Shown: positions 3,854 through 33,404, counted from the first letter of the stretch. The stretch is 64,000 nt of DNA from Longimicrobiales bacterium (GCA_035461245.1 DATHVP010000008.1:6000-69999); one strand, 5' to 3'. Program-made: numbers and translations. Notes: generated from the sequence alone by a model not told the origin.

Positions 3854-3946
3854 TGGATCCAGACTCGGATGGGCGGCGGCCGGACCCCTACCCCGGCCCT
3901 GCCGGTGCCGGCTCGCCGCCCACCGAGTGGCTCGCAGAGGAAGGTC

Positions 3947-12709: not shown

Positions 12710-12746
12710 TGAACCGCCCGCGACGAGCGGGCACGGCACGGGCTGC

Positions 12747-15887: not shown

Positions 15888-15982
15888 GGCCAGTCCCCGC
15901 ACAAGGTTCGGTATGCCTCCCGACGGCGCTCCCGGTCGTAAAATCATACCTTTAGGTGCGAAATCAAACACGGGAGGATTTC

Positions 15983-16993
15983 ATGACGAACATGCGAACG
16001 ATAATGGCTGGTACGGCTGCGGCCGTGGTGATTGGAACGGCGGGCTACGCCATGACGACGCAAGGCAGTGAGGAAGTGGAGTACACTGATTTCGGCGTGG
16101 TGACCACCACAACCGATCCAGCGTGGGATGCGCGGGTCATGCCGGCGTCCTCGGCGCCGGTGAAGGAGTTCCGCATCCCGATGACGCACGTGGAGATCGA
16201 GATTGCGCCGGGCGTGACGTACGAGGGCTGGACCTTCGGCAACACGGTGCCGGGCCCGACCATCCGGGTGAACCAGGGGGACCTGGTGAAGGTGACGCTG
16301 GTGAATGAGAGCGACATGCCACACAGCATTGACTTCCACTCGGCGCGGATTCCCATGGACGTGGCGTTCAAGACCATTGGCCCGGGCGAGGAGCTGGAGT
16401 TCGAGTTCGTGGCAAACGATCCGGGCGCGTTCATGGTGCACTGCGGCACGCCGCCGGTCCTGATGCACATCATGCAGGGCATGTACCTGCCGATCATCGT
16501 GGACCCGAAGGGTGGCTGGGGCACGCGTGCGGACAAGGAGTTCGTCATCGTGCAGAGCGAGTTCTACACCCAGGAGCGGGATGGCAGGCATGTCCCCGAC
16601 TGGAACGCTGCGCTGGCGAAGAACGCGTCATATGTGGTGTTCAACGGCCGTGCGGACCAGTACCAGGCCGCGCCGCTGGAGGTGGACGTGGGTGACCGGG
16701 TCCGGTTCTTCGTGGTCAACGCCGGCCCGAGCGTGCACAGTGACTTCCACGTGGTGGGCGCCGTTTTCGACCGGGTCTACCCTGGCGGCAATCCGAAGCA
16801 CGTCATCGAGACGGTCCAGACGTGGACGGTCCCGGTGGGTGGCGGTGCGGTGTTCGAGACTGAGTTCAATGCCGGCGCCAGCGGTGAGGGTGTATACGCC
16901 TTCGTGACACATGCCTTCGCGGACGCGAGCAAGGGTGCGGTGGGCCTGGTCAAGGTCGGCCAGCCGACCATCGCGGCGGGCATGTCCCACTGA
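15983..16993 (+). CDS. nirK: copper-containing nitrite reductase
   Basis: The protein has a two-cupredoxin size. Copper motifs are present: HSIDFH (T1 His, catalytic Asp, T2 His), VHCGTPPVLMHIMQGM (T2 His-T1 Cys...His...Met), DFHVVGAVFDRVY (catalytic His) and AFVTHAF (T2 His). GGGAGG lies 5 nt upstream of ATG 15983. Confidence 0.9.
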   Translation: MTNMRTIMAGTAAAVVIGTAGYAMTTQGSEEVEYTDFGVVTTTTDPAWDARVMPASSAPVKEFRIPMTHVEIEIAPGVTYEGWTFGNTVPGPTIRVNQGDLVKVTLVNESDMPHSIDFHSARIPMDVAFKTIGPGEELEFEFVANDPGAFMVHCGTPPVLMHIMQGMYLPIIVDPKGGWGTRADKEFVIVQSEFYTQERDGRHVPDWNAALAKNASYVVFNGRADQYQAAPLEVDVGDRVRFFVVNAGPSVHSDFHVVGAVFDRVYPGGNPKHVIETVQTWTVPVGGGAVFETEFNAGASGEGVYAFVTHAFADASKGAVGLVKVGQPTIAAGMSH

Positions 16994-17044
16994 GGCAGCG
17001 GGGTCGCACCGGAGACGGTGCGGCCCTCTCCATCCGGAGGATCC

Positions 17045-17512
17045 ATGAATACCCGAACCACACCGGCGCCGACGGCCTGGCGCATGATCTCACAGACGGC
17101 GGAATACGCGCTGCGGGTGGTGCTGTACCTGGCGGCGCGGCCGGCGGGCGAGCGGGTCGGCGCATCACGGGTGGCGGCAGAGCTGGGCATACCAGAGCGC
17201 TACCTCGCCCGGGTGATGAATGCGCTGGCCCGGGACGGCGTGCTCCTGTCGGCCCGGGGTGCCCAGGGTGGTTTCAGCCTGGCTGTCCTGCCAGCGGCGC
17301 TGACGCTGGGCGCGGTGGTGGCGCCGTTCGACGCGGTGGGCCAGGCCCCGCAGTGCCTGCTGCGGGAGCAGCGGTGTGACCCGTCCGATCCGTGCCTCGC
17401 CCACGAGCACTGGCACTGTATAGCCGGCGGGGTGCGGCACTTCTTCCAGACAACGACAATTGCGGACCTGCTGGGTGACGAGCTCACGTCGCCATTGGCG
17501 CTCCGGCACTAA
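17045..17512 (+). CDS. Rrf2-family transcriptional regulator (NsrR/IscR-like, three-Cys cluster site)
   Basis: The wHTH core reads ISQTAEYALRVVLYLA...ELGIPERYLARVMNALARDGVLLSARGAQGGFSL. The cluster-ligand pattern is CLLREQRCDPSDPC (C-x6-C-x5-C). A GGAGG RBS is present. Confidence 0.85.
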   Translation: MNTRTTPAPTAWRMISQTAEYALRVVLYLAARPAGERVGASRVAAELGIPERYLARVMNALARDGVLLSARGAQGGFSLAVLPAALTLGAVVAPFDAVGQAPQCLLREQRCDPSDPCLAHEHWHCIAGGVRHFFQTTTIADLLGDELTSPLALRH

Positions 17513-17528
17513 TCAGAGAGTGACGACA

Positions 17529-17729
17529 ATGAACGCAGTCGAGATAGCGCAGCTTCCGGTGAACGAGACAATCCGTCGCTACCCGTCGGCCGTTGAGCTG
17601 TTCAACCGCTACGGCATCGACGCCTGCTGTGGTGGCGACGCACCGGTCCGTGAGGCAGCCGTTCGCGATGGGGCGGACGCCGACGCACTGATGGCGGAAC
17701 TGCTGCAACTCGTGGAGGCGGGCGCGTGA
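17529..17729 (+). CDS. small ScdA_N (DUF542)-like protein
   Basis: This 66-aa protein contains VNETIRRYPSAVELFNRYGIDACCGG. This matches the N-terminal domain of RIC/ScdA/YtfE di-iron repair proteins (D-x-CCGG signature, recalled from memory), but it lacks the hemerythrin domain. Confidence 0.7.
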   Translation: MNAVEIAQLPVNETIRRYPSAVELFNRYGIDACCGGDAPVREAAVRDGADADALMAELLQLVEAGA

Positions 17730-18037
17730 GGGTGCTGTCATCAGGGCCCGGCCAGCGGGATGAGCGGCCGGCCACGGAGATCCTGCACGACGAGGCGAGT
17801 GTCCGGGTCGTGATGTTCCACCTGAAGCCAGGGCAGCAGGTGCGGCCGCACACGAGCCCCAGCAGCGTGCTGGTGACGGTGCTGTCGGGCCACGGCGAGT
17901 TCACCGGCGCAGACGACGCAACGGAGCTGAACGCCGGTGACTCCGCAGTCTATGAGCCGGGTGAGGTGCACGGCATGGTGGCCGGCACCGAGCCGTTGCG
18001 GTTCCTGGCCATTATCACCCCGCGCCCCGGAGGCTGA
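17726..18037 (+). CDS. cupin-domain protein
   Basis: The protein is 103 aa. A cupin_2-like pattern is present (FHLKPGQQVRPHTSPSSVLVTVLSGHGEF ... PGEVHGM). GTG 17726 overlaps the upstream stop (GTGA). Confidence 0.7.
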   Translation: MRVLSSGPGQRDERPATEILHDEASVRVVMFHLKPGQQVRPHTSPSSVLVTVLSGHGEFTGADDATELNAGDSAVYEPGEVHGMVAGTEPLRFLAIITPRPGG

Positions 18038-18040
18038 GCG

Positions 18041-19264
18041 ATGAAGCCGGACATTGCTGCCGCAGACTTCAGCCAGGCGCCCTACCTGGTCATCTGGGAG
18101 ACGACACGCTCGTGCGACCTGGCGTGCAAGCACTGCCGTGCAGAGGCCGTAACCAACCGGCATCCGCTTGAATTGACGACGGCGGAAGCGAAGCGGATGA
18201 TGGATGACGTCCGGCGCTTTGGCCGGCCCCTGTTCGTCCTGACCGGCGGCGACCCGCTGAAGCGGCCTGACGTGGTTGAACTGGTGGAGTACGGCACGTC
18301 CATCGGCCTGCGCATGGCGATGACGCCCTCCGGTACGCCGCTCATGACGGAGCCCGTGCTGCGGCAGCTGAAGGACGCCGGCCTGGCGCGGCTGGCCGTG
18401 AGCCTGGACGGCTCGACGCCCGCCATCCATGACGCGTTCCGCGGCGTAGACGGCTCCTGGGACTGGACCATCAACATGCTGCGGACCGCCCGCGAGATCG
18501 GGCTTACGACGCAGGTCAACACCACCGTCAGCCTGCACAACCTCACGGATTTCGACGCCCTCTGCGAGCTCATGGTAGGGCTGGGCATCACGCTGTGGAG
18601 CGTCTTCTTCCTGGTCCCCACGGGCCGTGCCAAGGCCGACGACGTGGCCAGCGCTGACGAGTTCGAGCATGTCTTCAACCGGATGTACGACCTGTCGAAG
18701 ACGGCGCCGTTCGACATCAAGAGCACGGCGGCGCCGCAGTACCGGCGAGTGATCCTGCAGCGGCAGGTCGCGGAGCGGCGGGCGGGCGGGCGGTCCGAGG
18801 CTCCGTCGCCCATGACCGCCGGGGTCGGCTTCTCGCTGGCCGACGGGGTCGGGCGTTCGAAGGGTGTAAATGATGGCGACGGATTCGTCTTCATCAGCCA
18901 CACCGGCGCCATCTGCCCGTCAGGCTTCCTGCCGCTGGCAGCGGGCAATGTGCGCATGCACGACGTGGTGGATGTCTACCGCAATTCACCGATGTTCGTG
19001 GCGCTGCGGGATCGTGACCAGTTGAAGGGCAAGTGCGGCGTCTGCGAATACCGCGACGTGTGCGGCGGCAGCCGCGCCCGGGCCTACGCCGTGACCGGTG
19101 ACATGCTGGAGTCGGAGCCGTTCTGCAGCCACGTCCCCGCGCGCTACCGGCGCATGGTGGAAGAAGGGACGGCGGAGCCCGTGGAGGAGTACTTCGCCCG
19201 GCGCACTGGCGGCCCCGCCGCCGGTCCGGCGACGGTACCCGTGGCCATGGCCAGCCGTCGCTGA
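18041..19264 (+). CDS. radical SAM/SPASM-domain enzyme (NirJ/AhbD-like)
   Basis: The CDLACKHC (Cx3Cx2C) radical SAM motif lies in WETTRSCDLACKHCRA, and GGDPL is present. The C-terminal Cys-rich SPASM-like region reads KGKCGVCEYRDVCGGSRARAY...PFCSH. Confidence 0.85.
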   Translation: MKPDIAAADFSQAPYLVIWETTRSCDLACKHCRAEAVTNRHPLELTTAEAKRMMDDVRRFGRPLFVLTGGDPLKRPDVVELVEYGTSIGLRMAMTPSGTPLMTEPVLRQLKDAGLARLAVSLDGSTPAIHDAFRGVDGSWDWTINMLRTAREIGLTTQVNTTVSLHNLTDFDALCELMVGLGITLWSVFFLVPTGRAKADDVASADEFEHVFNRMYDLSKTAPFDIKSTAAPQYRRVILQRQVAERRAGGRSEAPSPMTAGVGFSLADGVGRSKGVNDGDGFVFISHTGAICPSGFLPLAAGNVRMHDVVDVYRNSPMFVALRDRDQLKGKCGVCEYRDVCGGSRARAYAVTGDMLESEPFCSHVPARYRRMVEEGTAEPVEEYFARRTGGPAAGPATVPVAMASRR

Positions 19265-19289
19265 CGATGTAAGGAAGGTGCGAGGAGGG

Positions 19290-19322
19290 CGGGGAGCCTG
19301 CCGCGAGACGGCCGGCTCCCCG
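19290..19322. terminator. hairpin between convergent genes (cggggagcc-N15-ggctccccg)
   Basis: A 9-bp GC-rich stem lies between the radical SAM stop (19264) and the cytochrome c stop (19328). It is followed by ttgtat on the plus strand. Confidence 0.4.
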
Positions 19323-19327
19323 TTGTA

Positions 19328-19747
19328 TCAGCGGCTGACGGCGTAGACGTAGGCCGCGACCTGACGGATCTGGTCCTCGGAGAGGGGTGCGCCGCCCATG
19401 GCCGGCATGGGTGCAGGGAACTGCACGGGCTGAGCGACGCCCTCGCGGATGACCCTGACGATCTCGTCGAACGAGCCGTCGGTGTTCAGCCACTCCCCGT
19501 CATTCAGGGCTGGCGCCAGTGGGCTGCCCGTGGCGTTCCTGCCATGACAGGTGAAGCACGTCTGCTGGTTGAACACCTGCTGGCCGGCCGCCACCATGTC
19601 CTGCGTCACGCCTTCCGGCAGTTCCACCATGGGCAGCGCACCGTTGCCTGCAGCACTCCCCCCCGTGGTGCCCGGCGTGCTGTCGTCTGCGCCACCGCAC
19701 GCGGTGACCATGGCTACCGCCATCAGCGCGGCTGTACGTCGCAACAT
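19328..19747 (-). CDS. monohaem class I cytochrome c, probable lipoprotein
   Basis: The signal reads MLRRTAALMAVAMVTACGG (lipobox). A single CFTCH motif is present, with a distal PMPAMGG Met region. The size is 139 aa. Confidence 0.85.
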   Translation of the reverse strand: MLRRTAALMAVAMVTACGGADDSTPGTTGGSAAGNGALPMVELPEGVTQDMVAAGQQVFNQQTCFTCHGRNATGSPLAPALNDGEWLNTDGSFDEIVRVIREGVAQPVQFPAPMPAMGGAPLSEDQIRQVAAYVYAVSR

Positions 19748-22260: not shown

Positions 22261-22568
22261 CAGCCATCTTCCTGGATGAGGCCGGGATGCCACTGGGGAT
22301 CCCAGACCAGGCATGGGTGCACGTCGCCCACGCCCTCGACGGCGTGGACCGCCTGCAGGATCGCGTTGGTGATGTGCTCCTCCAGCGGACAGCCCGGCGT
22401 CGTCAGCGTGTATGTCACGATCACCGTGGAGCCCTCCACCACGACGTCGTAGACGAGGCCCAGCGTGACGATGTCCAGGCCGATCTCGGGGTCAATGACC
22501 GTGCGCAGCGCATCCATGACCACGCGCTCGTCCGGCGTGGCGGCAACTGGCTCAGCGGGCAGCGTCAT
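22257..22568 (-). CDS. DUF59 (MIP18/SufT-like) Fe-S assembly-related protein
   Basis: The sequence is [50 protein letters not shown], containing the typical DPE...D-x-V-x-LG-L-V and TxxxCP motifs. ATG 22568 overlaps the upstream stop (ATGA). Confidence 0.8.
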
Positions 22569-23872
22569 GGGCGAATCCTCCAGAGCAGAAGCATCTGTGA
22601 TGCGACGATCGCCGTGCCCGTGACGAACACCAGCGCCGCCGCGCGGGCGGGCTGTGCCATGCCCAGGCCGATGGCAACGAGCAGGGCGGCGGCACCCGCC
22701 AGCAGCGCCGCGACCGCGGCGTTGGCCAGCGTCGCCGAGTAGAGGTCCTGAACCCGTGGCACGGGACGGCGCCCGGCCAGCGGACCGAACCGGTGGTACC
22801 ACACCAGGAACGGCACGATCTTGTAGTAGTGCGCGACGACGAACAGTGACACCGCCAGGAGGATGGCCGTCACGTACGTCACCGCCAGCACGCCGCGGTT
22901 TGCCAGGATGATGACGGGTCCAGCCAGGAGCATTGCCGCCACCAGGAACAGGAGCGCGCCGGCGGCCAGCCGCATGCCGGGATCCAGGACGCGACGGTGT
23001 CGCGTGACGTAGAATGCTCTGGCCTGCAGCAGGAACGCGCCGCACCCGGCGGCGATGAGCACCGCCGGCAGCCAGTAGCTCACCAGGCGTGGCGCATGGT
23101 GCAGGAACGCCAGCACGCCGCTACCGGAGGCGACCAGCGCTACGGCCGCCTTCGCGAAGCGGTCCTGTGCGCCATGGCTCAGCAGGAACATGGGCAGCAG
23201 CCGGTGTCCCACGCCGATCATGACCAGCAGCACCCAGCCCGCCAGCGCCACGTGCAGGTGCACGCCCAGCGCAGCGAGCCGCCCGCCGCCGAGGAAGCCC
23301 CAGCGCAGGTTGCCCGTGAGAGCCAGGCCGAGGACCAGGGTTACTGTCAGGTAGCACGTCGCCAGCGCCAGCGCCCACCACGTGACGTCCCGGCGCGTGG
23401 CCGACTTCAGTGTCGCCGCCAGGTTGCCAGCGAACAGCAGTACGCCCATGCCCATCACAACTGCTCCACCCAGCAGCAGCATCGGTCGCCCCGTCGCCAG
23501 CCCGGTGACGAATGCCAGCAGGCCGGGCACATGCAGGGCGAAGGTCACGTGCGCCAGTGTCACGGAGCGGATGGGACGGTCCAGCGCCACCGGCAGGAAC
23601 TGGTACAGCGCGCCCATGATGGACGTGGTGATCCAGCCCAGAGTGAACAGGTGGGTCAGCGCCGCCACCCGCGGCGACAGGTACTGGCCCGCCGCCAGGT
23701 CCGGCGCGTGCAATACCGCACCGGCGGCGCCCAGCAGCAGGAACCCGAGGGCAGCGGCGAAATGTTCGCCCGGCAGGATGGCCGGCGGTGCCTTCGACGA
23801 CGCCGACCCCGGCAGCGGCCCGGCGGCCGCGGGGCGCGCTGCCGCACTGCCCGCCACGGTCGCCGCGTTCAT
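22565..23872 (-). CDS. hypothetical 12-TM His-rich membrane protein
   Basis: The protein is 435 aa from ATG 23872, which overlaps the ctaA stop (ATGA). There are about 12 hydrophobic helices. His-containing helix motifs recur ([23 protein letters not shown]; [25 protein letters not shown]; [15 protein letters not shown]). No family was recognised. Confidence 0.6.
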
Positions 23873-25032
23873 GGCGTCGCCTCGGCCGTGCTCCGGCCGC
23901 CATGAACGCCCACGCGGGCCGTCAGCACCCGGTGCAGCCAGCAGAGCCACACGCCGAACAGCACCATCGCCATGCCCTGGTGGATGACACCGAGGCTCAC
24001 CGGCACCAGCAGAAGCAGCGTGGCGATGCCCAGGGCGTACTGCACCGCCATCAGCACCGCAAGCGCACCGGCATACCGCCGGGATGCCGGGTCCGTCACC
24101 CCCTCGCGCACCAGCATGAACAGCCCCACCACTGCCACAGCCAGCAGCGTCCCCAGCACCCTGTGCACCCACTGCACCGATGCGGGGTTCGCAACAAAGT
24201 TGTAGAGCACGGGCTCCAGGTGTAACAGCTCCGGCGGCGTCAGCCGCCCGCCCATCAGCGGGAATGTCGGGTAGAACTTGCCCGCCCGCAGACCGGCAAC
24301 GAAGGCGCCCCATACCACCTGCGCCGCCAGCAGCACCCCCGTCACTGCCAGGCCCCGCAGCATCATGCGGCGGGCAGCTGCCGGGAACTGCGCGGCGCCG
24401 CGGGTCGCCAGGTCACGGGCCAGCCAGACGGCCCAGCCGAAGATCAGGAACGCCAGGCTCAGGTGCGCCGCCAGCCGGAAATGGCTCACGCTCGGTCGGT
24501 CCACCAGCCCGCTCTTCACCATGAGCCAGCCCATCACCCCCTGCGCAGCGCCCAGGCCGAACAGCAGCAGCGCGCGACGCAGCATCGGACTCGTGAACCA
24601 GCCCCGCACCCAGAACACGACGAACGGCACCAGGAACACCAGCCCGATGCCACGCGCCAGCAGGCGATGGAAGTATTCCCAGAAGAAGATGAACTTGAAC
24701 TCCGACAGCGTCATGCCCTGACGCCACGTCTGGTACTCCGGGAACTGCCGGTACAGCTCAAACGTCGCCTGCCACTGCGCATCCGTCAGTGGCGGGATCA
24801 CGCCCATCAGCGGCTGCCAGTCTACTATGGAGAGCCCCGACAGCGTCAGCCGCGTTATGCCACCCACGATCAGCACCGCGAACGTCATGGCCGCAACGCT
24901 CCACAGCCACACCCGCATCGGCCGCCGCCGCGACTCCGGGATCGCCTCCGTCCAGTGTCCCGCCGACGCCACCGGTCCCGCTTCCGCCACCAGCGGCATC
25001 ACTGCTGCCTGCCCCATGTTCATCCGCTCCAT
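23869..25032 (-). CDS. ctaA: haem A synthase (COX15/CtaA family)
   Basis: COX15-type motifs are present (VGGITRLTLSGLSIVDWQPLMGVIPP, EFKFIFFWEYFHRLLAR, HRVLGTLL, VIHQGMAM). There are about 8 TM helices. Confidence 0.85.
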   Translation of the reverse strand: MERMNMGQAAVMPLVAEAGPVASAGHWTEAIPESRRRPMRVWLWSVAAMTFAVLIVGGITRLTLSGLSIVDWQPLMGVIPPLTDAQWQATFELYRQFPEYQTWRQGMTLSEFKFIFFWEYFHRLLARGIGLVFLVPFVVFWVRGWFTSPMLRRALLLFGLGAAQGVMGWLMVKSGLVDRPSVSHFRLAAHLSLAFLIFGWAVWLARDLATRGAAQFPAAARRMMLRGLAVTGVLLAAQVVWGAFVAGLRAGKFYPTFPLMGGRLTPPELLHLEPVLYNFVANPASVQWVHRVLGTLLAVAVVGLFMLVREGVTDPASRRYAGALAVLMAVQYALGIATLLLLVPVSLGVIHQGMAMVLFGVWLCWLHRVLTARVGVHGGRSTAEATP

Positions 25033-25177
25033 CCCTCGTGCCTGCCCCCGTCGCCCGCCGCCGCGTACGACGAAAATCGCACATCAAGGTATGAAATACT
25101 CGCCGCCGCGCTGTCGGAGGTTGTCAGACAGATGTGTGGGGGATTTCCCCGCAGCGAACAGCGGTGACGGCGGCGGA

Positions 25178-25687
25178 TCATGGGCGGTACGGCGTCCGGG
25201 CGTGGAGGCGACCGGCATCGGCGTCAAGCGTCACGAGGCCGACGTCGCCGGGGCCGAGGAGCAGGGTGGTATCCAGTGCGGCGAGGATGGTGGAGCCATT
25301 GGCCGCGGCCCGTATGAGCTGGAGCTGGATGCTGTGCCGACCGGGCTCGAGGTTCCTTTCCTCGAGGACAATGAGGGGGCGATCGCCCTTGAAGCCGCCG
25401 CGCACCAGGTGCAGGGTGTCCGCGACGCTCCCATCCACGGCCAGTACGATCATGAAGTCGGACTCGTCCCGGGTGCACACCTCCGGCGACCGCATGTGGA
25501 CGGGCAGGCTCTCGAGTTCCTCCTGGCTCCGTGGCCGGCAGTCCTCGGTGGCGGGCACAGTCATGCGCCATGAGAACCGGAGCGCGGCGTCGTCAGCGCC
25601 GGGTGCCGAGTAGCCGGGTGCGCGGGCCAGCCCGGCGATGGGCAGGGTGAGCAGTGCGGCGGAAAGGAACACACGCACGCGCTTCAT
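25178..25687 (-). CDS. hypothetical secreted protein
   Basis: The signal peptide reads MKRVRVFLSAALLTLPIAGLARA. ATG 25687 overlaps the upstream stop (ATGA). No family was recognised. Confidence 0.45.
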   Translation of the reverse strand: MKRVRVFLSAALLTLPIAGLARAPGYSAPGADDAALRFSWRMTVPATEDCRPRSQEELESLPVHMRSPEVCTRDESDFMIVLAVDGSVADTLHLVRGGFKGDRPLIVLEERNLEPGRHSIQLQLIRAAANGSTILAALDTTLLLGPGDVGLVTLDADAGRLHARTPYRP

Positions 25688-27288
25688 GAGACCTCCGCGG
25701 GTTCGTCGTTCTGTCTGGCCTGGCAGAGCGCGATGATGTTCACGTCCTCCTCATCGTCCCCCGGCAGCGCGTTGATCTGGTCCCGGAACGCCGTGACAGC
25801 CGCATGCAATTCCACCCCCTCGCCGATATTGGCCTGGACGAGCCGCAGACGGTTCCGGTCAACCCGGTCCTTCAGGTCCGCCATGCGGCCGTGGAAGAGT
25901 CGGGCATCCGCCCAGGTCACGCCCTCACGGGTGCGCCCGTCATGCTCCGGGCAGCCGACGACGAGGACACCGCCTGCGCCACCGCGAATGAGTGTTTCCA
26001 CGGTGGACGAGTGCAGGGATCCCACGCACGGCACGCTGAAGAGCCTGGCTCCGGAGCGAGCGGCTTCGCCGGCCGCGGCGCTCCACGAACAGCCGACGAT
26101 GACGACGTCGTCCTCCGCCGGTTTCTCGGTGGCGAGGAAGGCGCGGACATCGGCCAGCTGGTCCCGGCCACTGAAGCCGAGGGCGCTGATGGCCATCGGC
26201 GGGCATGAGCCGACGCAAATCCCGCAGCTCGTGCACAGGTCCGTCTTCACCCGGGCGACGAACTCGCTCCGCCGGCCATCGTCCTGCCGGCTCACCATCT
26301 CGATGGCGTCGTACGGACAGTCGTGGACACACTGCTCGCAGCCCGTGCACGTTCGCTCATCCACCACCGCGGGCGCCGGCAGCGCCACCGTCCTCGGCCG
26401 GGTCAGCCACGGCACGGCGACGAGCGCCCCGGCGATTGCCACGCCCAGGAACCACACCACGCCCGCGGGCATGCGCTGCGTTATGGGCACCCAGAAACCA
26501 AAGAACCAGTCCAGCGGCACGTCCGATGGCACGCGCAGGAGGTCCGCCGGCGCCGCCATTGGCAGCGGCCACACCACAGCCGCCACCGTCAGCGCCGCGA
26601 TGGATCCCCACAGCACCGGCCGGGAAGGGAGCAGCACCGGCCGGGCCACCCGCGCCACATGCACCCACAGCAGCAGCGCGATGCTGAGGGGCAGCGCAAT
26701 GTGCGCAAACAGGTTGACGAAGAAGAAGGCGTGGGGCGGCTCGGCGTCGCCGGAAAAAGACCGGCTCAGCGGCTCCGTGAACAGCGGCAGCGCGTCCAGC
26801 AGCCGTGCCCCCTCCGCGGCCAGCAGCTGCGCATGCGTGTCCCACACCAGGACGTAGCCCGTCCAGCCCGTCACCAGGATCACCCCCACCAGCACCAGCC
26901 CGCTCACCCACGCCAGTGCCCGGGGGCCCCACGTGCGACGCTGCACGTACATGCGCACGGCGTGTACGCCAGCGGCCACCAGCGCCGCATCCGACGCGAA
27001 CCTGTGCAGCGCGCGGATCCAGCGCCCCGCCAGCGCCTGCTCGTTCAGCCTTGCCACCGACGTGTAGGGCGCGCCCAGGCGGTAGAACAGCAGCAGGTAT
27101 ACGCCCGTCACCAGCAGAACTCCCAGCAGGCCCACCGTGATGGCGCCGCTGTGATACAACGGATTGTGTCGCGATGTATGGATCCGGTTCGCCAGCGCGT
27201 CCACTCGCGCCAGCCAGCGGTAGCCCCGTCGTGGCTCCATGCCGCCCCAATGGTTATGCGTTCCCCACACGCGTGCACACTCATGCAC
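25684..27288 (-). CDS. fusion protein: dihaem cytochrome b (N-terminal domain) + 2x[4Fe-4S] ferredoxin + MvhD/FlpD-like domain
   Basis: Two His pairs are spaced 14 apart in TM helices (ALHRFASDAALVAAGVH; AHIALPLSIALLLWVH), as in cytochrome b. Ferredoxin motifs CTGCEQCVHDCP and CTSCGICVGSCP follow. The C-terminal region VVIVGCSWSAAAG...FSVPCVGSLHSS...VLVVGCPEHD is typical of the hydrogenase delta-subunit family. An alternative start is ATG 27240. Confidence 0.8.
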   Translation of the reverse strand: MHECARVWGTHNHWGGMEPRRGYRWLARVDALANRIHTSRHNPLYHSGAITVGLLGVLLVTGVYLLLFYRLGAPYTSVARLNEQALAGRWIRALHRFASDAALVAAGVHAVRMYVQRRTWGPRALAWVSGLVLVGVILVTGWTGYVLVWDTHAQLLAAEGARLLDALPLFTEPLSRSFSGDAEPPHAFFFVNLFAHIALPLSIALLLWVHVARVARPVLLPSRPVLWGSIAALTVAAVVWPLPMAAPADLLRVPSDVPLDWFFGFWVPITQRMPAGVVWFLGVAIAGALVAVPWLTRPRTVALPAPAVVDERTCTGCEQCVHDCPYDAIEMVSRQDDGRRSEFVARVKTDLCTSCGICVGSCPPMAISALGFSGRDQLADVRAFLATEKPAEDDVVIVGCSWSAAAGEAARSGARLFSVPCVGSLHSSTVETLIRGGAGGVLVVGCPEHDGRTREGVTWADARLFHGRMADLKDRVDRNRLRLVQANIGEGVELHAAVTAFRDQINALPGDDEEDVNIIALCQARQNDEPAEVS

Positions 27289-27405
27289 ACGACAGTGGTG
27301 TCGGGCTCACCCCTACATCACGTAGGGGAACCTCCCTATGGCGCACCACCGTCCGCCGGTATTATATCATATTCGCATGAGAAACTCAAATGGACGGCAG
27401 GGACC

Positions 27406-27915
27406 ATGCTGAATCAGTCGGCAGACCACGCGTTGAGGGCCGTGCTGTTCGTGGCACGGCAGGCGGAGGACGTGCCATGCAGTGCCGACCTCATCGCGTC
27501 GACGCTGGACGTGCCGCGCAACTATCTGGGCAAGCTGTTGAACACGCTGGCGCAGACGGGCGTGCTGCTGTCCACGCGGGGGCCGCGGGGCGGCTTCCGG
27601 CTGGCGATGGACCCGGCGTCACTGCCGCTGGCGCGGATCGTTGAGCCGTTTCACCGGCTGCCGGAGCGACGCACGTGCCTGCTGGGCAACGGGGCGTGTG
27701 ATCCGGACAACCCGTGTGAGTCGCACGACCGGTGGCAGGCGATGACGGACCATCTCACGCAGTTCTTCGAGCGGACGACGGTGGCGACGATGCTGAGCGG
27801 CCACGGCGACGACGACGGCACCACCGTCATCATGCATCGGACCCGGCCGGCGCGGGACGTTGGCGCCACATCGCCGACATCCGGCCAGGGGTCGTACCGG
27901 CGTACGGGGACATAG
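27406..27915 (+). CDS. Rrf2-family transcriptional regulator (second NsrR/IscR-like paralogue)
   Basis: The wHTH core reads MLNQSADHALRAVLFVARQ...LDVPRNYLGKLLNTLAQTGVLLSTRGPRGGFRL. The cluster pattern is CLLGNGACDPDNPC (C-x6-C-x5-C). The start was moved from 26323 to ATG 27406, after an AT-rich intergenic island. Confidence 0.85.
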   Translation: MLNQSADHALRAVLFVARQAEDVPCSADLIASTLDVPRNYLGKLLNTLAQTGVLLSTRGPRGGFRLAMDPASLPLARIVEPFHRLPERRTCLLGNGACDPDNPCESHDRWQAMTDHLTQFFERTTVATMLSGHGDDDGTTVIMHRTRPARDVGATSPTSGQGSYRRTGT

Positions 27916-27947
27916 CAGGGATCCACCTATCAACTGGGGAGAGGACA

Positions 27948-28124
27948 ATGGCGAAGCTGCCGGGAAGCGACCACACGACGACGCCGGACGAGATACCGCT
28001 GGGCCAGCGGCTGTATGACAACTGGCTGCTGCTGATGATAGCCGGCATCGTCATCATGGCGGTGATCTACACGGGGTGGGGCATGTGGGAAATCGCGAAT
28101 CTTCCGACCTCGACACTGCCATGA
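27948..28124 (+). CDS. small single-TM protein, possible oxidase subunit IIa-like
   Basis: The protein is 58 aa with one TM helix (WLLLMIAGIVIMAVIYTGWGMW). A GGGGAGAGGA RBS is present. Its stop overlaps the subunit II start (ATGA). Confidence 0.45.
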   Translation: MAKLPGSDHTTTPDEIPLGQRLYDNWLLLMIAGIVIMAVIYTGWGMWEIANLPTSTLP

Positions 28125-28735
28125 GTGAACACGGGAAGCAGGACAACGGGGAGACGATGCACACGGGCATGGTCGCGCCGAAGGGGCGCTGGTGGGTGCC
28201 TGCGCACAAGTCGGAGAAGGTATGGTTCGCCATTGCCTTCGCCTGGTGCATGGTACTGTTCGCCATGATGCCGCTGTGGCACTGGAAGGGCGGCCAGAAC
28301 CCGACGGGCATCCGGGCGAAGGTGGACCCGGTGGAGTTCCGGGCGCGGGTGGACCAGTTCGTGGACGACTACCAGGTGGACGTGCTGAACGGGTTCCCGG
28401 TGGTGGAGCCTCCGCCGGGAAGTGACATCTACCTGATGGGGCGGATGTGGAGCTGGTATCCGGTGCTGAAGCTGCGCAAGGGCGTGGAGTACACGCTGCA
28501 CCTGTCGTCCATCGACGTGAACCACGGCTTCTCCCTGTACCCGGTGAACATCAATTTCCAGGTCGTTCCGGGCTACAACTACGGGCTGAAGATCGTGCCC
28601 ACGGAGGCGGGCGAGTTCGGCATCATCTGCAATGAGTTCTGCGGCATCGGGCATCACATGATGCTGGGCCGGGTGATCGTAACGAATGAGGACGGGTCCA
28701 TGCCCGGCACAACGACAGTCGCGGAGGTGCACTGA
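28121..28735 (+). CDS. haem-copper oxidase subunit II, CuA-type (B-family-like, no cytochrome c domain)
   Basis: There is one TM helix and a cupredoxin domain. The CuA ligands are VNHGFSL and CNEFCGIGHHMM (H...C-x-E-x-C-G-x2-H-x2-M). Confidence 0.9.
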   Translation: MSEHGKQDNGETMHTGMVAPKGRWWVPAHKSEKVWFAIAFAWCMVLFAMMPLWHWKGGQNPTGIRAKVDPVEFRARVDQFVDDYQVDVLNGFPVVEPPPGSDIYLMGRMWSWYPVLKLRKGVEYTLHLSSIDVNHGFSLYPVNINFQVVPGYNYGLKIVPTEAGEFGIICNEFCGIGHHMMLGRVIVTNEDGSMPGTTTVAEVH

Positions 28736-30495
28736 TGACGACGACGGTAGCCGACCGGCCGCACGGACGTGCGCCATTGAAGGAATGGGCGTTCCGGACC
28801 TGCGGCGTGACCGGGCTGAAGCTCGACCGGCAGGGCGAACTGCTCATCAAGGCGCATGCGGTGGTGGCCACGGTCATGCTGCTCATCGGCGGCATCAGCG
28901 CGCTGCTGATCCTGCTGACGCGCTGGCAGACGGTGCACCTGCTGGACCCCGTGATGTTCTACCGCGTGCTCACGGCGCACGGCCTCACGATGCTCGTCTT
29001 CTTCATCATCTTCTTCGAGATGGCGGTCCTCTACTTCGCCGCGGGGCCGATGCTGAACAGCCGCATCGCCGCGCCGAAGTTGGGGTGGTTCAACTTCGCG
29101 CTGATGCTGACGGGCGCGACGCTGGCGGAGGTCATGATCTGGACGGGCAAGGCCGACGTCCTCATGACGTCGTACATCCCTCTGCGGGCGGATCCGCTGT
29201 ACTACCTGGGCATCATACTGTTTGCGGTAGGTGCACTGCTGGTCTGCTTCCAGTTCTTTGCCACGCTGGTCGTGGCGAAGCGGGAGCGCACCTACGAGGG
29301 CTCGCTGCCGCTCATCACCTACGGCGCGGTTACGGCGGCCATTATCGCCGTCATCACGCTGCTGCACGGCGCCGCGACCTACATTCCCACGTTCCTCTGG
29401 TCAATCGGCCTGATTGATGTGGACCCGCAGCTCTACCGGATGCTGTGGTGGGCACTCGGACACTCGTCGCAGCAGATCAACGTGGCCGCGATGGTGGCCA
29501 TCTGGTACCTGCTGGGCGCGCTGACGGTTGGTGCGGTGGTGCTGAACGAGAAGATCAGCCGCACGGCGTTCGTGCTGTACATCCTGTTCATCTCCATGGC
29601 CTCGGCGCACCACCTGCTGGTGGACCCGGGCTTCAGCTCTGCCTGGAAGGTGGTGAACACCAGCTACTTCATGTACATGGCGGTGCTGGCCAGCATGCTC
29701 CACGGCTTCACGGTGCCGGCGGGCGTGGAGGTGGGGCAGCGGCTGCGTGGCGTATCCCAGGGCCTGTTCGGCTGGGTGAAGAAGGCGCCCTGGGGCGATC
29801 CCGGCTTCAGCTCCCTGGTGCTCTCGGTGGTCGTGTTCGGCTTCGTCGGTGGCATCACGGGAGTCACCATCGGGACCGAGCAGATCAACATCGTCGCCCA
29901 CAACACCCTGCGCGTGCCAGGCCACTTCCACGCAACGGTGGTGAGCGGTACGACCATGGCCTTCATGGGGCTGACGTACTACCTGATCCCGCTCATCTTC
30001 CGCAGGAAGGTCGCATTCTGGCGGGCGGCACAGTTGCAGCCGTACCTGTTCGCCGGCGGCATGCTGGTGTTCTCCATCTTCATGTCATTCTCCGGCGGGT
30101 TCGGCGTGCCGCGGCGGACGTGGGACATCACGTTCAGCGGCGCGCCCTTCGAGATGGCGTTCCACCCGGTGGTGGACGGCCTGATGGCCATCATGGCGCT
30201 GGGCGGCATCGTCGCGGCCATCGGTGGCGGCCTCTACATCGTCATCACGGTGTGGTCTGTCTTCTTCGGTGAGAAGTTCACGGAGGCGGATCGTGTGCCA
30301 GGCGCGAAGGGCCTGCCCCAGGGGCTGACCCGTCCGCCGCGCCCGGTGACTGCCGCCGACGAGAAGAACCTGCCCACCGGCCGGCTCGGTCACGCGCCGG
30401 GCACCATGATCCTGGTGGCGGTGTTCCTGGCGGCCTTCGCCATCTACTACTTCGCCAACTGGAAGATCCTGTCCTTCGTCTGGAAGATCGGATAA
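28735..30495 (+). CDS. haem-copper oxidase superfamily subunit I, B-family-like, lacking the cross-link Tyr (probable NO reductase, eNOR-type)
   Basis: All six metal-ligand His are present: LTAHGLTML, WWALGHSSQQ, SAHHLL, PGHFH. The Thermus ba3 GHPIVY motif (recalled from memory) reads GHSSQQ here. There are about 13 TM helices. The start overlaps the subunit II stop (TGATG). Confidence 0.85.
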   Translation: MTTTVADRPHGRAPLKEWAFRTCGVTGLKLDRQGELLIKAHAVVATVMLLIGGISALLILLTRWQTVHLLDPVMFYRVLTAHGLTMLVFFIIFFEMAVLYFAAGPMLNSRIAAPKLGWFNFALMLTGATLAEVMIWTGKADVLMTSYIPLRADPLYYLGIILFAVGALLVCFQFFATLVVAKRERTYEGSLPLITYGAVTAAIIAVITLLHGAATYIPTFLWSIGLIDVDPQLYRMLWWALGHSSQQINVAAMVAIWYLLGALTVGAVVLNEKISRTAFVLYILFISMASAHHLLVDPGFSSAWKVVNTSYFMYMAVLASMLHGFTVPAGVEVGQRLRGVSQGLFGWVKKAPWGDPGFSSLVLSVVVFGFVGGITGVTIGTEQINIVAHNTLRVPGHFHATVVSGTTMAFMGLTYYLIPLIFRRKVAFWRAAQLQPYLFAGGMLVFSIFMSFSGGFGVPRRTWDITFSGAPFEMAFHPVVDGLMAIMALGGIVAAIGGGLYIVITVWSVFFGEKFTEADRVPGAKGLPQGLTRPPRPVTAADEKNLPTGRLGHAPGTMILVAVFLAAFAIYYFANWKILSFVWKIG

Positions 30496-31415
30496 TGACG
30501 AGAAACGCAACGACTCCTCCCGGGCTCGACCGGGAGGAGTCACAGGCCATGGCAGGGCTCATCGTCCTGTTCCTGACGACTGCCGCATGGTGGGCCCTCG
30601 CCCTCTGGCCGGTGGACGGTGCACCGGCCTGGCTGGAGCGGACCCGCTACGTCTGCTTCGGTGTTGCGGAGAACGGACTGCCCGATACCGGCGGCTGGAT
30701 CGGGCTCATTGCAGGACCGCTGGGTATGTTCAGCATCCTGGCCGTGGGCTGGAACGGCGGCATGCGCAGCCTGCTGCGGCGGACCCGGAGTTCGCGGCCG
30801 GTGGCAGCAGCCCTTACGACGCTTGCACTGGGCACCATGGTGATGGTGACGGGCGCCACGGTGCGCGTCCAGCAGGCCATGGCCGCGCCGCCGTGGCTGC
30901 AGGAGGACAGCGGGCTCCCGCCGGAGACGTATCCCCGGCTGGATCGTGAGGCGCCGGGCCTCGTACTCACGGCGCAGGACGGCGCGCTCTTCGATATCGC
31001 GTCCCTCACGGGCAGGCCGGTGCTCGTCACCTTCGCGTACGCCCACTGCACCACCATCTGCCCGGTCATCGTCATGCACGCGTTGAAGGCGCAGGAGGCA
31101 CTGCGGGGCACGGTGCATGAGCCCGCCGTCGTCGTCGTCACGCTGGACCCGTGGCGGGATCCGCCGTCCCGCCTGGCGGGCATGGCCCGGAGCTGGGGCT
31201 TCCCTGCTGAGAATGCCTGGATCCTCAGCGGCGCCATTGACGAGGTGGAGGCTGCCCTCGATGCCTGGGACGTCCCCCGCAGTCGGGATGAACGCACGGG
31301 CGAGGTGACGCATCCGTCGCTGGTGTACGTGCTGGACCGGGACGGGTCCATGGCGTACGCCTCCACCGGCGGCATTGACGCCCTCGTATCGCTGGTGGAG
31401 CGGCTCGAGCCATGA
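30495..31415 (+). CDS. SCO1/SenC-family copper chaperone with an N-terminal polytopic membrane domain
   Basis: A thioredoxin-like domain carries FAYAHCTTICP (CxxxCP) and a distal His (EVTHPSLVYVLDRDG). Three to four hydrophobic helices precede it. Confidence 0.85.
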   Translation: MTRNATTPPGLDREESQAMAGLIVLFLTTAAWWALALWPVDGAPAWLERTRYVCFGVAENGLPDTGGWIGLIAGPLGMFSILAVGWNGGMRSLLRRTRSSRPVAAALTTLALGTMVMVTGATVRVQQAMAAPPWLQEDSGLPPETYPRLDREAPGLVLTAQDGALFDIASLTGRPVLVTFAYAHCTTICPVIVMHALKAQEALRGTVHEPAVVVVTLDPWRDPPSRLAGMARSWGFPAENAWILSGAIDEVEAALDAWDVPRSRDERTGEVTHPSLVYVLDRDGSMAYASTGGIDALVSLVERLEP

Positions 31416-32272
31416 GCGCCGCGGTGCGGGCCTACTTTGAACTGACGAAGCCGGGCATCACGCTCTTCATCGGCATCACCGCCGGTGCCGGGTTCATCAC
31501 CGCGCTCGGTGGCTGGGGCATGCCCGGGCTGCTCATGGTGACACTCCTTGCAACGATGCTCATGTCGGCGGGCGCGGCCACCCTGAACCAGGTCGTGGAA
31601 CAGCGGTGGGATGCCATGATGGCGCGTACGGCTTCACGGCCCATCCCCTCGGGTCTCGTCAGTGAGCGTTCCGCCCGGGTGTTCGGGTGGGCCCTGAGCG
31701 GCATCGGCCTGGTGCTGTCACTGGCGCTGCTGCCCTGGGCGACGGCGCTGTTCCTAGTGCTCTGTCACGTCAGCTACGTCTTCGCCTATACGCCGCTCAA
31801 GCGCCGCACGCCCCTGTGCACGCTGACTGGCGCCATACCCGGTGCACTGCCGGTGCTGGCCGGGTGGGCTGCCACTGGCCAGCCCATCGACGTTGTGGCC
31901 ATCGCCCTCACGGGCGTGCTGTTCATGTGGCAGATCCCCCATTTCCTGGCCATCGGCTGGATGGCACGGGACGATTACGCCAGCGCCGGTTGCCCGATGC
32001 TGGGCGTAGTGGAGTCTACCGGCCGGGCCAGTGCGCGCATTTCGCTGTTCTATGCGTCGGCCATGCTGGTCTGCGCCCTCGTCGTGGGCGTCATGTCCGA
32101 CGCCGGCGCCGTGTTCCTGGCGACGGCGCTGGCAACGGGCGGCGCGTACGTCCTTTTCGCCTGGCGTTTCGTACAGCGGCGCGACCGGGCTCCGGCCCGT
32201 CAGCTGTTCTTCAGTTCCCTCCTCGTCCTGCCCATCCTCCTGGGCGCTCTGATGCTGGACCTGGCAGTATGA
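31412..32272 (+). CDS. ctaB: protohaem IX farnesyltransferase (haem O synthase)
   Basis: The protein is a UbiA-family polytopic protein (YFELTKPGITLF, NQVVEQRWDAMMARTASRPIPSG, YTPLKRRT, WQIPHFLAI). ATG 31412 overlaps the upstream stop (ATGA). Confidence 0.9.
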   Translation: MSAAVRAYFELTKPGITLFIGITAGAGFITALGGWGMPGLLMVTLLATMLMSAGAATLNQVVEQRWDAMMARTASRPIPSGLVSERSARVFGWALSGIGLVLSLALLPWATALFLVLCHVSYVFAYTPLKRRTPLCTLTGAIPGALPVLAGWAATGQPIDVVAIALTGVLFMWQIPHFLAIGWMARDDYASAGCPMLGVVESTGRASARISLFYASAMLVCALVVGVMSDAGAVFLATALATGGAYVLFAWRFVQRRDRAPARQLFFSSLLVLPILLGALMLDLAV

Positions 32273-32417
32273 AGCACGTCGGCGATCGGACCTTCTCACC
32301 GGCCCCCTCCCGCCGGTAGTCTGATCGTCGGCGGGCTCGCCATGCCGCCGCACCGTTGCGGAGATGCGCGCGACCCGTAAGCTCAGGGATGGTTTCATCC
32401 CTACTGACTGACGATTC

Positions 32418-33404
32418 GTGAAGATCACCTGGATCGTCCGCAACTGGTTCCTCGCAGGGTTGCTCACGGCTGCTGGCCTGGCCTTTGTCTTCCCGGCGGT
32501 GGGCGCCAGGGGCGGGCCGCTCGCCCCCGAAGTGACGGCCAAAGCCGCCGTCGCCATCATTTTCCTGTTGCAGGGACTTGCCCTGTCCCCGGAGGCGCTC
32601 CGGGCGGGTGCCATGCGCTGGCGCCTGCACAGCGCTACCCAGTTGTTCATCTTTGCCCTGTTTCCCGCCGCCGTCCTCGCCGCCGATCATGTGGCCGGCC
32701 CGGTCCTCGGCCTGAGCCCGGAAATCCGCGTCGGCTTCATCTTCCTGGCTGTCCTGCCCACCACCGTTTCCACGTGCGTGGTGCTCACCGCCGTGGCGGA
32801 CGGGAACGTAGCCGGAGCCCTGTTCAACGCGGTGTTCGCGAACCTGGCAGGCGTGCTGCTGACGCCGCTGTGGGCTGCGCTGCTCATCGGTTCCGCCAGC
32901 GACGGGCCGCCCCTGCACGCCATGGTCCTGGAGATCGCGCTGCTGCTGCTGGCGCCCCTCGTCGCCGGACAGCTCCTCCGTCCTGCCCTGGCACGCCGCA
33001 ACCTGATCCACCGGCGCCTCGTCAGCGTGCTGTCGAACGCGATCCTGCTCTTCATCGTGTTCACCGCCTTCGCCAACTCCGTGCACGACGGCGCGTTCCG
33101 GACAACTGGGCCGGCAGAGGTCGCCCTGGTGCTCCTGTGCGCCATTGTCCTGTTCGCCGTCGCTGCCAGCGGCGCGTGGCTGCTGGGCCGCCGCCTGGCC
33201 TTCGACCCGGCGGACGCCCGGGCCCTCTTCTTCTGTGCCCCCCAGAAGACGCTCGCCGCCGGGGTGCCCATGGCCCAGATCCTGTTCGCCGGCAATCCCG
33301 CCCTCGCCCTGATCCTGCTCCCCCTCATGGTCTACCACGTCGCCCAGCTCATTGCCGGCGCCTTCCTGGCTGACCGGCTCCGGATGCCTTCCGCAGCAGC
33401 GTGA
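32418..33404 (+). CDS. bile acid:sodium symporter (BASS/YfeH-like) family transporter
   Basis: The start is GTG. The polytopic protein contains IIFLLQGLALSPEAL and FLAVLPTTVSTCVVLT, motifs typical of SBF-like transporters. Confidence 0.8.
   Translation: MKITWIVRNWFLAGLLTAAGLAFVFPAVGARGGPLAPEVTAKAAVAIIFLLQGLALSPEALRAGAMRWRLHSATQLFIFALFPAAVLAADHVAGPVLGLSPEIRVGFIFLAVLPTTVSTCVVLTAVADGNVAGALFNAVFANLAGVLLTPLWAALLIGSASDGPPLHAMVLEIALLLLAPLVAGQLLRPALARRNLIHRRLVSVLSNAILLFIVFTAFANSVHDGAFRTTGPAEVALVLLCAIVLFAVAASGAWLLGRRLAFDPADARALFFCAPQKTLAAGVPMAQILFAGNPALALILLPLMVYHVAQLIAGAFLADRLRMPSAAA

Follow-up and report, generated by a model that had tools for sequence, protein, structure and literature searches.

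Does a haem-copper oxidase-like operon whose catalytic subunit lacks the cross-link tyrosine of the active site serve to reduce O2 or nitric oxide (NO)? The question is raised by a 64,000-nucleotide (nt) stretch of DNA from a Longimicrobiales bacterium (GCA_035461245.1, DATHVP010000008.1:6000-69999), hereafter the window. Positions 27948-32272 (plus strand) hold an operon for a 58-amino-acid (aa) protein, subunit II, subunit I, a SCO copper chaperone and a haem O synthase, which a first-pass annotation described as a probable eNOR-type nitric oxide reductase (NOR). Our analysis supports this description. The locus likely encodes a NOR of the eNOR family, accompanied by genes for the assembly of its cofactors.

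The active site of subunit I (28735..30495, plus strand; Pfam COX1, 6.4e-64) was compared with its best solved homologues, the ba3 oxidase chains of Thermus thermophilus (HMMER, E ~2e-43). All six histidine ligands are kept, as the annotation had stated: H82, H243, H292, H293, H397 and H399 align with the ligand histidines of ba3. In helix VI, the ba3 segment ‘ghpivy’ pairs gap-free with ‘ghssqq’ of subunit I, which places Gln247 at the position of the cross-link residue Tyr237. The codons CAC TCG TCG CAG CAG (29461..29475, plus strand) read His243-Ser-Ser-Gln-Gln247 where ba3 reads HPIVY. The loss of the tyrosine reported by the annotation is thereby borne out, and its coordinates for His243 (CAC, 29461-29463) and Gln247 (CAG, 29473-29475) are exact. 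Judged from the alignment, the replacement of Tyr by Gln is not a matter of chance, because Q246, Q247 and N249 are invariant in 194 relatives. No substitute was found at the helix VII position used by C-family enzymes, another point that the annotation had raised; this position, presumed here to lie six residues before the HH motif, is occupied by Ile286. The helix VI motif of subunit I has no active-site Glu, a feature of cNOR and qNOR, and no NorB chain is present among the PDB matches at E <= 1e-3, which include only ba3-type, Aquifex and aa3-600 oxidases. Inspection of the proton-channel residues, which had been advised, revealed a conserved K-channel-like set. The ba3-equivalent positions are S320 (S309 in ba3), H323 (T312), T326 (T315) and Y258 (Y248), all conserved across the family; the ba3 numbering and residue list are those reported by Chang et al. 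2009.

Subunit II (28121..28735, plus strand) is a CuA cupredoxin with one transmembrane (TM) helix and matches ba3 subunit II at 1.1e-16 (phmmer). Its CuA site is complete, as first annotated, with all six ligand residues (H135, C170, E172, C174, H178 and M181; H...CxExCxxxHxxM) aligned to the ba3 subunit and ‘cnefcgighhmm’ paired with ‘cnqycglghqnm’. In addition, Glu32 (‘SEKVW’) aligns with the Glu of ba3 ‘YEKGW’ (E15) at the K-channel entrance position.

Homologues of subunit I were sought with HMMER over 1.84 billion cluster representatives, and the helix VI motif splits the relatives into four kinds: GHxxQQ[IV]N, GHxxQY, GHP[LIV]VY and FHxxHY. Relatives of the first kind come from Gemmatimonadota and Natrarchaeobius (P0124, 40% identity) and include sequence P0121 (54%). 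The GHxxQY relatives, which retain the tyrosine, are archaeal (Hodarchaeales, Thermoproteota; 35-43% identity), and the ba3-type GHP[LIV]VY relatives are 26-30% identical to subunit I. Further QQ-type sequences were found with tblastn on plasmids, namely those of Defluviimonas (49%), the Thermomicrobium roseum megaplasmid (48%) and T. thermophilus denitrification plasmids (45-50%); no assayed eNOR was among these matches. The Thermus accession cited in PMC8756737 was not found in the cluster look-ups. GTDB was scanned with an alignment of six diverse eNOR-type sequences and the pattern [WY]W[GAI]xGH[GSM][SAT]QQ. More than 600 stretches matched, at least 510 were confirmed as relatives, and the best 80, all from Proteobacteria, were taken. 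The sampled proteobacterial members are 49-55% identical to subunit I, which has more than 120 close homologues.

The motif WWxxGH[SAG][ST]QQ[IV]N is invariant in the 194 relatives. These come from four phyla of bacteria, represented by Gemmatimonadota, Proteobacteria, Thermus and Thermomicrobium, and from one haloarchaeon. Invariance in these QQ-type sequences extends to H82, Y147, W239, H243, Q246, Q247, N249, Y258 and Y282, as well as H292, H293, H323, E332, R336, H397, R460 and R461, and 177 positions of subunit I are conserved at 97% or above. S320 is Ser in 192/194 sequences. Position 399 is His in 193/194 and Lys in Thermus, where a clade member reads GHFK for GHFH, a His-to-Lys change at the low-spin haem ligand. 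The same change is reported for ‘some eNORs’ (PMC11214002), and the Thermus variant ties the clade to eNOR as defined in that study.

A neighbour-joining tree (44 sequences, 517 columns, Kimura distance, 100 bootstraps) recovered the QQ clade in 91/100 bootstraps, with ba3-type sequences falling elsewhere. In this phylogeny, a step that the annotation had called for, subunit I is nested among Gemmatimonadota, beside P0121 and Proteobacteria, and is not grouped with the Tyr-containing B-family enzymes. Hidden Markov models (HMMs) of each group, that for eNOR built without Gemmatimonadota, score subunit I at 784 bits (eNOR), 532 (QY), 336 (B family), 309 (HxxHY) and 241 (an HH-lacking group). 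The assignment is supported by the clade, by these scores and by the published criterion for the helix VI position, which is Q in eNOR, N in sNOR, E in cNOR/qNOR and Y in oxidases (PMC8756737, section 2.7.1, Table A4). An NCBI/ENA protein from the metagenome-assembled genome of an uncultured Longimicrobiales (Gemmatimonadota) bacterium is 100% identical to subunit I. The database label of subunit I, cytochrome c oxidase, is a mislabel of a probable eNOR.

A Tyr-containing ‘K family’ of O2 reductases clusters next to eNOR (bioRxiv 592808), and the GHxxQY sequences are probably members of it. Like the window enzyme, they have Q246 and an [IV]N motif, and their genes are arranged as small-II-I; they differ in keeping the cross-link Tyr and in having no denitrification context. 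The O2-reducing K family, as represented by the QY sequences P0125, P0128, P0129 and P0146, is probably the source from which eNOR derives. These four GHxxQY sequences are the closest relatives outside the Gln clade, and two have a named source, Hodarchaeales (Asgard) and Thermoproteota. At one QY-type locus (L093, 6288-8749), the same small-II-I order is found and no denitrification genes are present. A separate haem-copper-like protein of 497 aa is encoded directly upstream of the eNOR genes at the P0121 locus (L090, 7844-9337). It reads ‘GGGHVLQLA’ and ‘PAHYHAS’ and was judged to be of the same type as P0219, P0248 and P0270, without the HH metal-ligand pair; this type clusters near the eNOR and QY relatives in 71/100 bootstraps.

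The window enzyme was also compared with other members of the superfamily. The T. thermophilus ba3 oxidase (1EHK, 1XME) shares the six His ligands, the Arg pair, CuA and the K-channel positions, whereas it has Tyr237 for Gln247 and T312 for His323, is only ~30% identical and reduces O2. The cNOR and qNOR enzymes (NorB/NorZ), which are relatives of the C family, and the bNOR, sNOR and gNOR enzymes are likewise superfamily members without the cross-link Tyr, for which NO reduction has been shown or proposed. However, cNOR and qNOR have an active-site Glu, and a cytochrome c or a fused quinol domain takes the place of CuA. Asn occupies the Tyr position in sNOR, the active-site structure of which is shared by bNOR (PMC8756737 Table A4; PMC11214002), and gNOR has an Asp for one metal-ligand His and lacks CuA (PMC11214002; PMC8756737 Table A4). 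The window enzyme has neither set of features, given that residue 247 is Gln rather than Asn and that the three metal-ligand His and the full CuA site are present.

The eNOR of Rhodothermus marinus DSM 4252 (Rmar_0161; Murali et al. 2024, PMC11214002) resembles the window enzyme in being a two-subunit haem-copper enzyme with a CuA subunit II, in lacking the cross-link Tyr, in its K-channel-like residues (including the ba3 S309 equivalent), and in being linked to genes for the biosynthesis of haem A and to nir and nap. It comes from another phylum and was compared by description; data on activity, haem As and metals exist for the R. marinus enzyme only. That enzyme reduces NO, does not reduce O2 with several donors and carries haem As in both sites, and structural models of eNOR contain no migrated Tyr (PMC11214002).

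The most likely mechanism for the window enzyme is that already proposed for eNOR. Electrons would reach the CuA of subunit II from a c-type cytochrome of the periplasm; genes for two such cytochromes lie in the vicinity. From there they would pass through a low-spin haem (His82/His399) to a binuclear site, predicted to consist of a high-spin haem (His397) and a non-haem metal, either Fe or Cu, held by His243, His292 and His293. The expected reaction is 2 NO + 2 e- + 2 H+ -> N2O + H2O. No O2 reduction would be expected, because the cross-linked Tyr that supplies the fourth electron is replaced by Gln247. Protons would probably be drawn from the cytoplasm through an analogue of the K-channel, leading from Glu32 of subunit II to Thr326, His323, Ser320 and Tyr258 of subunit I, and NO reduction would therefore be electrogenic. 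It has been argued that eNOR may conserve energy because it keeps a K-channel-like set that includes the S309 equivalent (PMC11214002). Haem O and haem A would be supplied by CtaB and CtaA, and CuA would be loaded by SCO.

The gene content of the operon is as first annotated, with gene calls and Pfam and TIGR01473 matches in agreement. A 58-aa protein with one TM segment (27948..28124, plus strand; residues 27-45) precedes subunit II. Subunit I is followed on the same strand by the membrane-anchored SCO copper chaperone (30495..31415, alternative start 30549; Pfam SCO1-SenC, 2.8e-21) and the haem O synthase CtaB/CyoE (31412..32272; TIGR01473, 238.9 bits, cut-off 210.3). The open reading frames (ORFs) overlap by 1-4 nt at 28121, 28735 and 31412, and, with the longer form of SCO, at 30495 too; the G+C content of the window is ~69%. 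In its 288-aa form, SCO has a CxxxC motif (CTTIC) at 167-171 and His255, with hydropathy peaks located upstream of the SCO domain. The 58-aa protein, which has neither a Pfam match nor a PDB chain match, has homologues of 36-60 aa that are encoded at the corresponding place in Thermomicrobium, Thermus, Defluviimonas and locus L090. Small proteins of this conserved family precede subunit II in eNOR operons, and the 58-aa member is possibly a third subunit. A small single-TM protein, subunit IIa, is also encoded before subunit II in the ba3 locus. Homology between the two was considered and dropped, as no similarity to a ba3 subunit IIa sequence was detectable; the analogy is positional only.

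A gene for an Rrf2-family regulator (27406..27915, plus strand; Pfam Rrf2, 5.6e-22; TIGR00738, 90.2 bits) ends 32 nt before the start of the 58-aa gene, and because of this short distance it is probably the first gene of the eNOR transcription unit, which its product may control. The annotation had placed an NsrR-like regulator here. Its position and family stand, and three clustered cysteines (C91, C98 and C104) are present; the NsrR label is less certain, since the protein scores 34.6 bits against the NsrR equivalog NF008240 (cut-off 182) and higher against the IscR model. An NsrR identity would be suggested by context only. On Thermus plasmids and at Gemmatimonadota loci, the homologous oxidase likewise has Rrf2 genes beside it.

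A minus-strand cluster begins 165 nt from the Rrf2 start, on the other side of a divergent intergenic region (27241..27405). It comprises genes for a cytochrome b/2x[4Fe-4S]/FlpD fusion (25684..27240; Pfam Cytochrome_B 3.7e-14, Fer4, FlpD 1.5e-10), a 169-aa β-sandwich protein (25178..25687) without a Pfam or NCBIfam match and, downstream of both, the haem A synthase CtaA/COX15 (23869..25032; Pfam COX15-CtaA, 3.2e-101), which the annotation had correctly assigned to a divergent cluster. A sigma-70-like promoter match lies on the minus strand of the intergenic region at 27389-27361 (TTGAGT-17-TATAAT, 10/12 positions plus a TG extension). It is the sole match in 24900-32600, where 0.8 is expected, and so provides weak evidence. 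No inverted repeat was found in 27241-27405. A candidate operator shared by the regions upstream of nirK and ctaA, AAGGTATGAWWT, was dropped, as 3/100 shuffles give a likewise result.

Window proteins were compared by tblastn with the best 80 proteobacterial loci, and the 48 with at least 6 kb on both sides were counted. Upstream of subunit I are subunit II (48/48 loci) and the small protein (39/48), and downstream of it are SCO (42/48) and ctaB (36/48). The cytochrome b/Fe-S/FlpD fusion is encoded at all 48 loci on the same strand within 10 kb, at a median of 2.5 kb downstream of subunit I. The 169-aa protein (39/48; median 3.5 kb) and a hemerythrin (46/48; median 4 kb) also lie downstream, and ctaA is present in 3/48. 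The annotation, which limited the system to 27948-32272, was thus right about the genes in that interval and too narrow about the extent of the system, which also takes in the divergent fusion and 169-aa genes.

The Ferrigenium straubiae operon and the 48 proteobacterial loci share with the window the small protein, subunits II and I, haem O synthase, SCO, a cytochrome b/[Fe-S] protein and one more small, uncharacterised protein. In Proteobacteria a single strand carries all of the genes, arranged as small-II-I-ctaB-SCO-cyt b fusion-p170-hemerythrin, and the hemerythrin gene is the last of the operon at 46 of the 48 loci. In the window, by contrast, SCO precedes ctaB, the fusion and 169-aa genes are divergent with ctaA, the Rrf2 gene leads the operon and no hemerythrin gene was found. 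A Defluviimonas plasmid has the order small-II-I-cyoE-SCO-cyt b-172 aa-hemerythrin. The order at L090 is small-II-I-SCO-cyt b/Fer4/FlpD-UbiA, adjoining napA, napD and nirS. Two other Gemmatimonadota loci (L091, L092) share the divergent layout of the window. The fusion is encoded in Defluviimonas, L090, L091 and L092, and no cytochrome b/[Fe-S] genes were present at the Thermus, Thermomicrobium and haloarchaeal loci inspected. For the Ferrigenium eNOR, subunits II and I, haem O synthase, sco1 and a ‘scaffold protein’ were described as common and the cytochrome b/[Fe-S] genes as ‘rather unusual’ (bioRxiv 10.64898/2026.01.22.701106). Our survey indicates that they are the rule in Proteobacteria and Gemmatimonadota.

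The N-terminal part of the fusion has about six TM segments and two pairs of His spaced x13 apart (H79/H93 and H180/H194), which fits two b haems. Its C-terminal part combines two CxxCxxCxxxC motifs, 2x[4Fe-4S], with an FlpD/MvhD-like domain; from the charged N-terminus and even number of helices, a cytoplasmic location of this part is predicted. All of the 130 homologues of the 169-aa protein carry the label ‘hypothetical’. C50, H64, M65, C71 and a GDRP motif are invariant; the Defluviimonas homologue (172 aa) follows the cytochrome b fusion. The confident AlphaFold 2 model of the 169-aa protein (predicted local distance difference test score, pLDDT, 92.7) consists of an N-terminal TM helix and a β-sandwich, and Foldseek searches of the PDB returned only generic β-sandwiches (template modelling score, TM-score, ~0.4). 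It could hypothetically be a metallochaperone or an extra subunit.

From their conservation, the fusion and the 169-aa protein may belong to the eNOR system, with a quinol-linked electron module and a metallochaperone as candidate roles. That they are integral to it rather than bystanders, perhaps together with the proteobacterial hemerythrin, is a tentative idea, which we regard as possible and no stronger. One open reading is that they form an electron-input or supercomplex module through which the quinone pool or a cytoplasmic donor would feed NO reduction, bypassing bc1. Another is that they would provide electrons and metal for making and inserting haem A and the non-haem metal at very low O2.

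Several other genes of the divergent cluster deserve mention. Following ctaA, a 435-aa membrane protein with many hydrophobic segments (22565-23872, minus strand) has no match in Pfam, NCBIfam or the PDB. One of its segments shows a weak similarity to helix X of haem-copper subunit I, in the region that binds haem (16.9 bits; E 5e-5 among 578 ORFs). It was compared with the 497-aa protein of L090 and found not to be related. Between the ctaA and 435-aa genes and a cytochrome c gene, at 20266-22568 (minus strand), are encoded a ScdA_N(DUF1858)-DUF2249-TusA-DUF2249 protein, two single DUF2249 proteins, a 232-aa protein and a SufT/PaaD-like FeS_assembly_P protein. ScdA_N and DUF2249 genes are associated with NO or iron stress, and on Thermus plasmids, too, ScdA_N/DUF542 genes come after those for eNOR. 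A hemerythrin was sought in the window by tblastn, and the only match, a weak one (E 5e-4, 47633-47869), was rejected because it lies inside an unrelated gene; the DUF2249 and ScdA_N proteins may fill the hemerythrin role in Gemmatimonadota and Thermus. Finally, a 151-aa protein with 3-4 hydrophobic segments (19795-20250, minus strand) weakly matches positions 2-149 of the Pfam COX1 profile (6.5e-6), and a 145-aa homologue is encoded directly before ctaA in L091 (2145-2582). The 151-aa protein may represent either an assembly factor or a paralogue that resembles a fragment of the N-terminus of subunit I.

The wider window provides a context of denitrification. A linked module at 15956..19747, identified by Pfam and NCBIfam matches, encodes on the plus strand a NirK-like nitrite reductase (15956-16993), a second Rrf2 protein (17018-17512), a cupin (17654-18037) and a TIGR04053 radical SAM/SPASM protein that is AhbD/NirJ-like (18041-19264; 474.9 bits, cut-off 395), and on the minus strand a lipoprotein-type cytochrome c (19328-19747). 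The nirK gene that the annotation placed 11 kb away is the NirK-like gene, which ends 10.96 kb upstream of the 58-aa gene and whose product has the type 1 and type 2 Cu ligand pattern (H123-x4-H128, H162-C163-x7-H171-x4-M176). The set recurs in distant lineages. On Thermus plasmids, nirK, radical SAM, cytochrome c, Rrf2, ScdA_N/DUF542 and cupin genes flank the homologous oxidase, and a similar set without cytochrome c flanks that of L091, where NirK is ~8 kb from the oxidase. The Thermus homologue adjoins nirK, plus nirS in one plasmid, and the L090 homologue adjoins nirS and nap. The TIGR04053 gene is syntenic with nirK, cytochrome c, Rrf2, cupin and eNOR genes in Longimicrobiales and Thermus (L005 1668-2816, L087 1633-2760). 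A haem d1 role for its product is unlikely here because the window has no nirS; an O2-independent haem modification serving a haem A-dependent eNOR is pure speculation.

Further upstream, a NapA-like molybdoenzyme (7496-10006, plus strand) scores 689 bits (NapA cut-off 904). It is part of a plus-strand stretch (683-14075) that also encodes a sigma-54 response regulator, two multihaem cytochromes (2282-3853, 3869-4801), a Fer4_11 protein (11411-12709) and an NrfD-like membrane subunit (12747-14075). Together, these genes resemble those for a non-canonical reductase complex acting on nitrate (or another oxyanion) in the periplasm, which would feed the pathway. No nosZ was seen among the window genes scanned. 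A search of 578 six-frame ORFs of at least 60 aa with an HMM of diverse subunit I sequences, together with Pfam labels, found no second full-length haem-copper subunit I of norB or norZ type in the window, in line with the annotation; the only other match was a weak one, to the 435-aa membrane protein.

How firmly do these data support NO reduction over other explanations? The enzyme might be an O2-reducing, B-family-like oxidase that does without the helix VI Tyr or employs another one. Databases call subunit I a cytochrome c oxidase, its best solved homologue is ba3, and CuA, SCO, ctaA and ctaB are what an oxidase typically comes with. Outside the clade, the nearest relatives keep the Tyr (GHxxQY), and an invariant tyrosine, Y282, lies in helix VII, ten residues ahead of the HH motif. 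However, Gln replaces the catalytic Tyr in 194/194 family members, the C-family position (HH minus 6) is Ile286, and identity to ba3-type sequences is only 26-30%. Furthermore, the R. marinus eNOR lacks O2 reduction, and eNOR models show no migrated Tyr (PMC11214002). O2 reduction is therefore very improbable. The chance that subunit I is a decaying or non-functional oxidase paralogue, its Tyr lost incidentally, is smaller still, and close to nil. Nothing beyond the loss of a catalytic residue speaks for decay, and it is contradicted by intact and overlapping ORFs, by a G+C content at third codon positions (GC3) of 0.91, which is typical of expressed genes in this 69% GC genome, by the 177 positions conserved at 97% or above in 194 sequences and by the more than 120 close homologues. 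The conservation data appear effectively to refute it.

A more serious contender accepts an eNOR-family enzyme and assigns it a role other than respiratory NO reduction, such as NO detoxification or signalling during aerobic growth, or other N-oxide chemistry involving the Fe-S/FlpD module and the proteobacterial hemerythrin. Neither of these partners, encoded at 48/48 and 46/48 proteobacterial loci, is needed in a model in which cytochrome c reduces CuA. The ScdA_N and DUF2249 genes of the divergent cluster, with their link to NO or iron stress, would suit such a role. So would the low turnover of the R. marinus enzyme, 0.68 NO per second (PMC11214002), and one paper leaves ‘NO or alternative substrates’ open (PMC8756737). 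Set against this are the NirK, NirS and Nap genes that repeatedly adjoin the enzyme in distant lineages, and the fact that eNOR is the sole NOR of R. marinus, which denitrifies to N2 (PMC11214002). In addition, enor surpasses the other nor types of estuarine sediments in both abundance and expression (PMC13592168), and Ferrigenium expresses its eNOR under denitrifying conditions (bioRxiv 10.64898/2026.01.22.701106). On balance, a different role is unlikely, and respiratory NO reduction by an eNOR-family enzyme is preferred.

Some points nevertheless weigh against this preferred interpretation. Only one eNOR has ever been assayed, and subunit I is at most ~55% identical to any relative outside Gemmatimonadota. 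The comparison set was without an assayed eNOR (R. marinus Rmar_0161, Magnetospirillum), and the tree was without an A-family or C-family outgroup and without sNOR, gNOR, nNOR and bNOR references. Because the Rmar_0161 sequence lies outside the comparison set, membership of the eNOR family would rest on the Gln criterion, the Lys variant, the operon match and the clustering with homologues from haloarchaea and Thermus, lineages in which eNOR has been reported. The four invariant tyrosines Y258, Y282, Y311 and Y314 fall in helices VI-VIII, and one of them might come near His243. The NirK-like protein scores below the TIGR02376 cut-off (182.6 against 296.3 bits). Lastly, the view is limited to 64 kb, and another NOR may exist elsewhere in the genome.

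The eNOR family was reportedly proposed in 2008 by Hemp and Gennis. Its assay was made public in a 2021 preprint and published in PNAS in 2024, and the family is present in 547 GTDB genomes (PMC11214002). In a 2026 estuary survey, enor accounted for 860/1486 nor genes (PMC13592168). The annotation had called the family recently and sparsely characterised, which holds for its biochemistry, with one enzyme assayed, and not for its genomics. The locus is a typical operon of an already described family, so that the find is correct but nothing out of the ordinary; annotating eNOR in metagenomes is by now routine, and a specialist would not be surprised by the locus.

Through its NapA-like enzyme, NirK-like enzyme and eNOR, the locus is predicted to give this Longimicrobiales bacterium a route from nitrate to N2O, which bears on the assignment of N2O production to Gemmatimonadota in soils and sediments. 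A modest new value lies in the cytochrome b/Fe-S/FlpD fusion and the uncharacterised β-sandwich protein that accompany eNOR across phyla. These conserved companions point to an unexplored supply of electrons or cofactors to eNOR.

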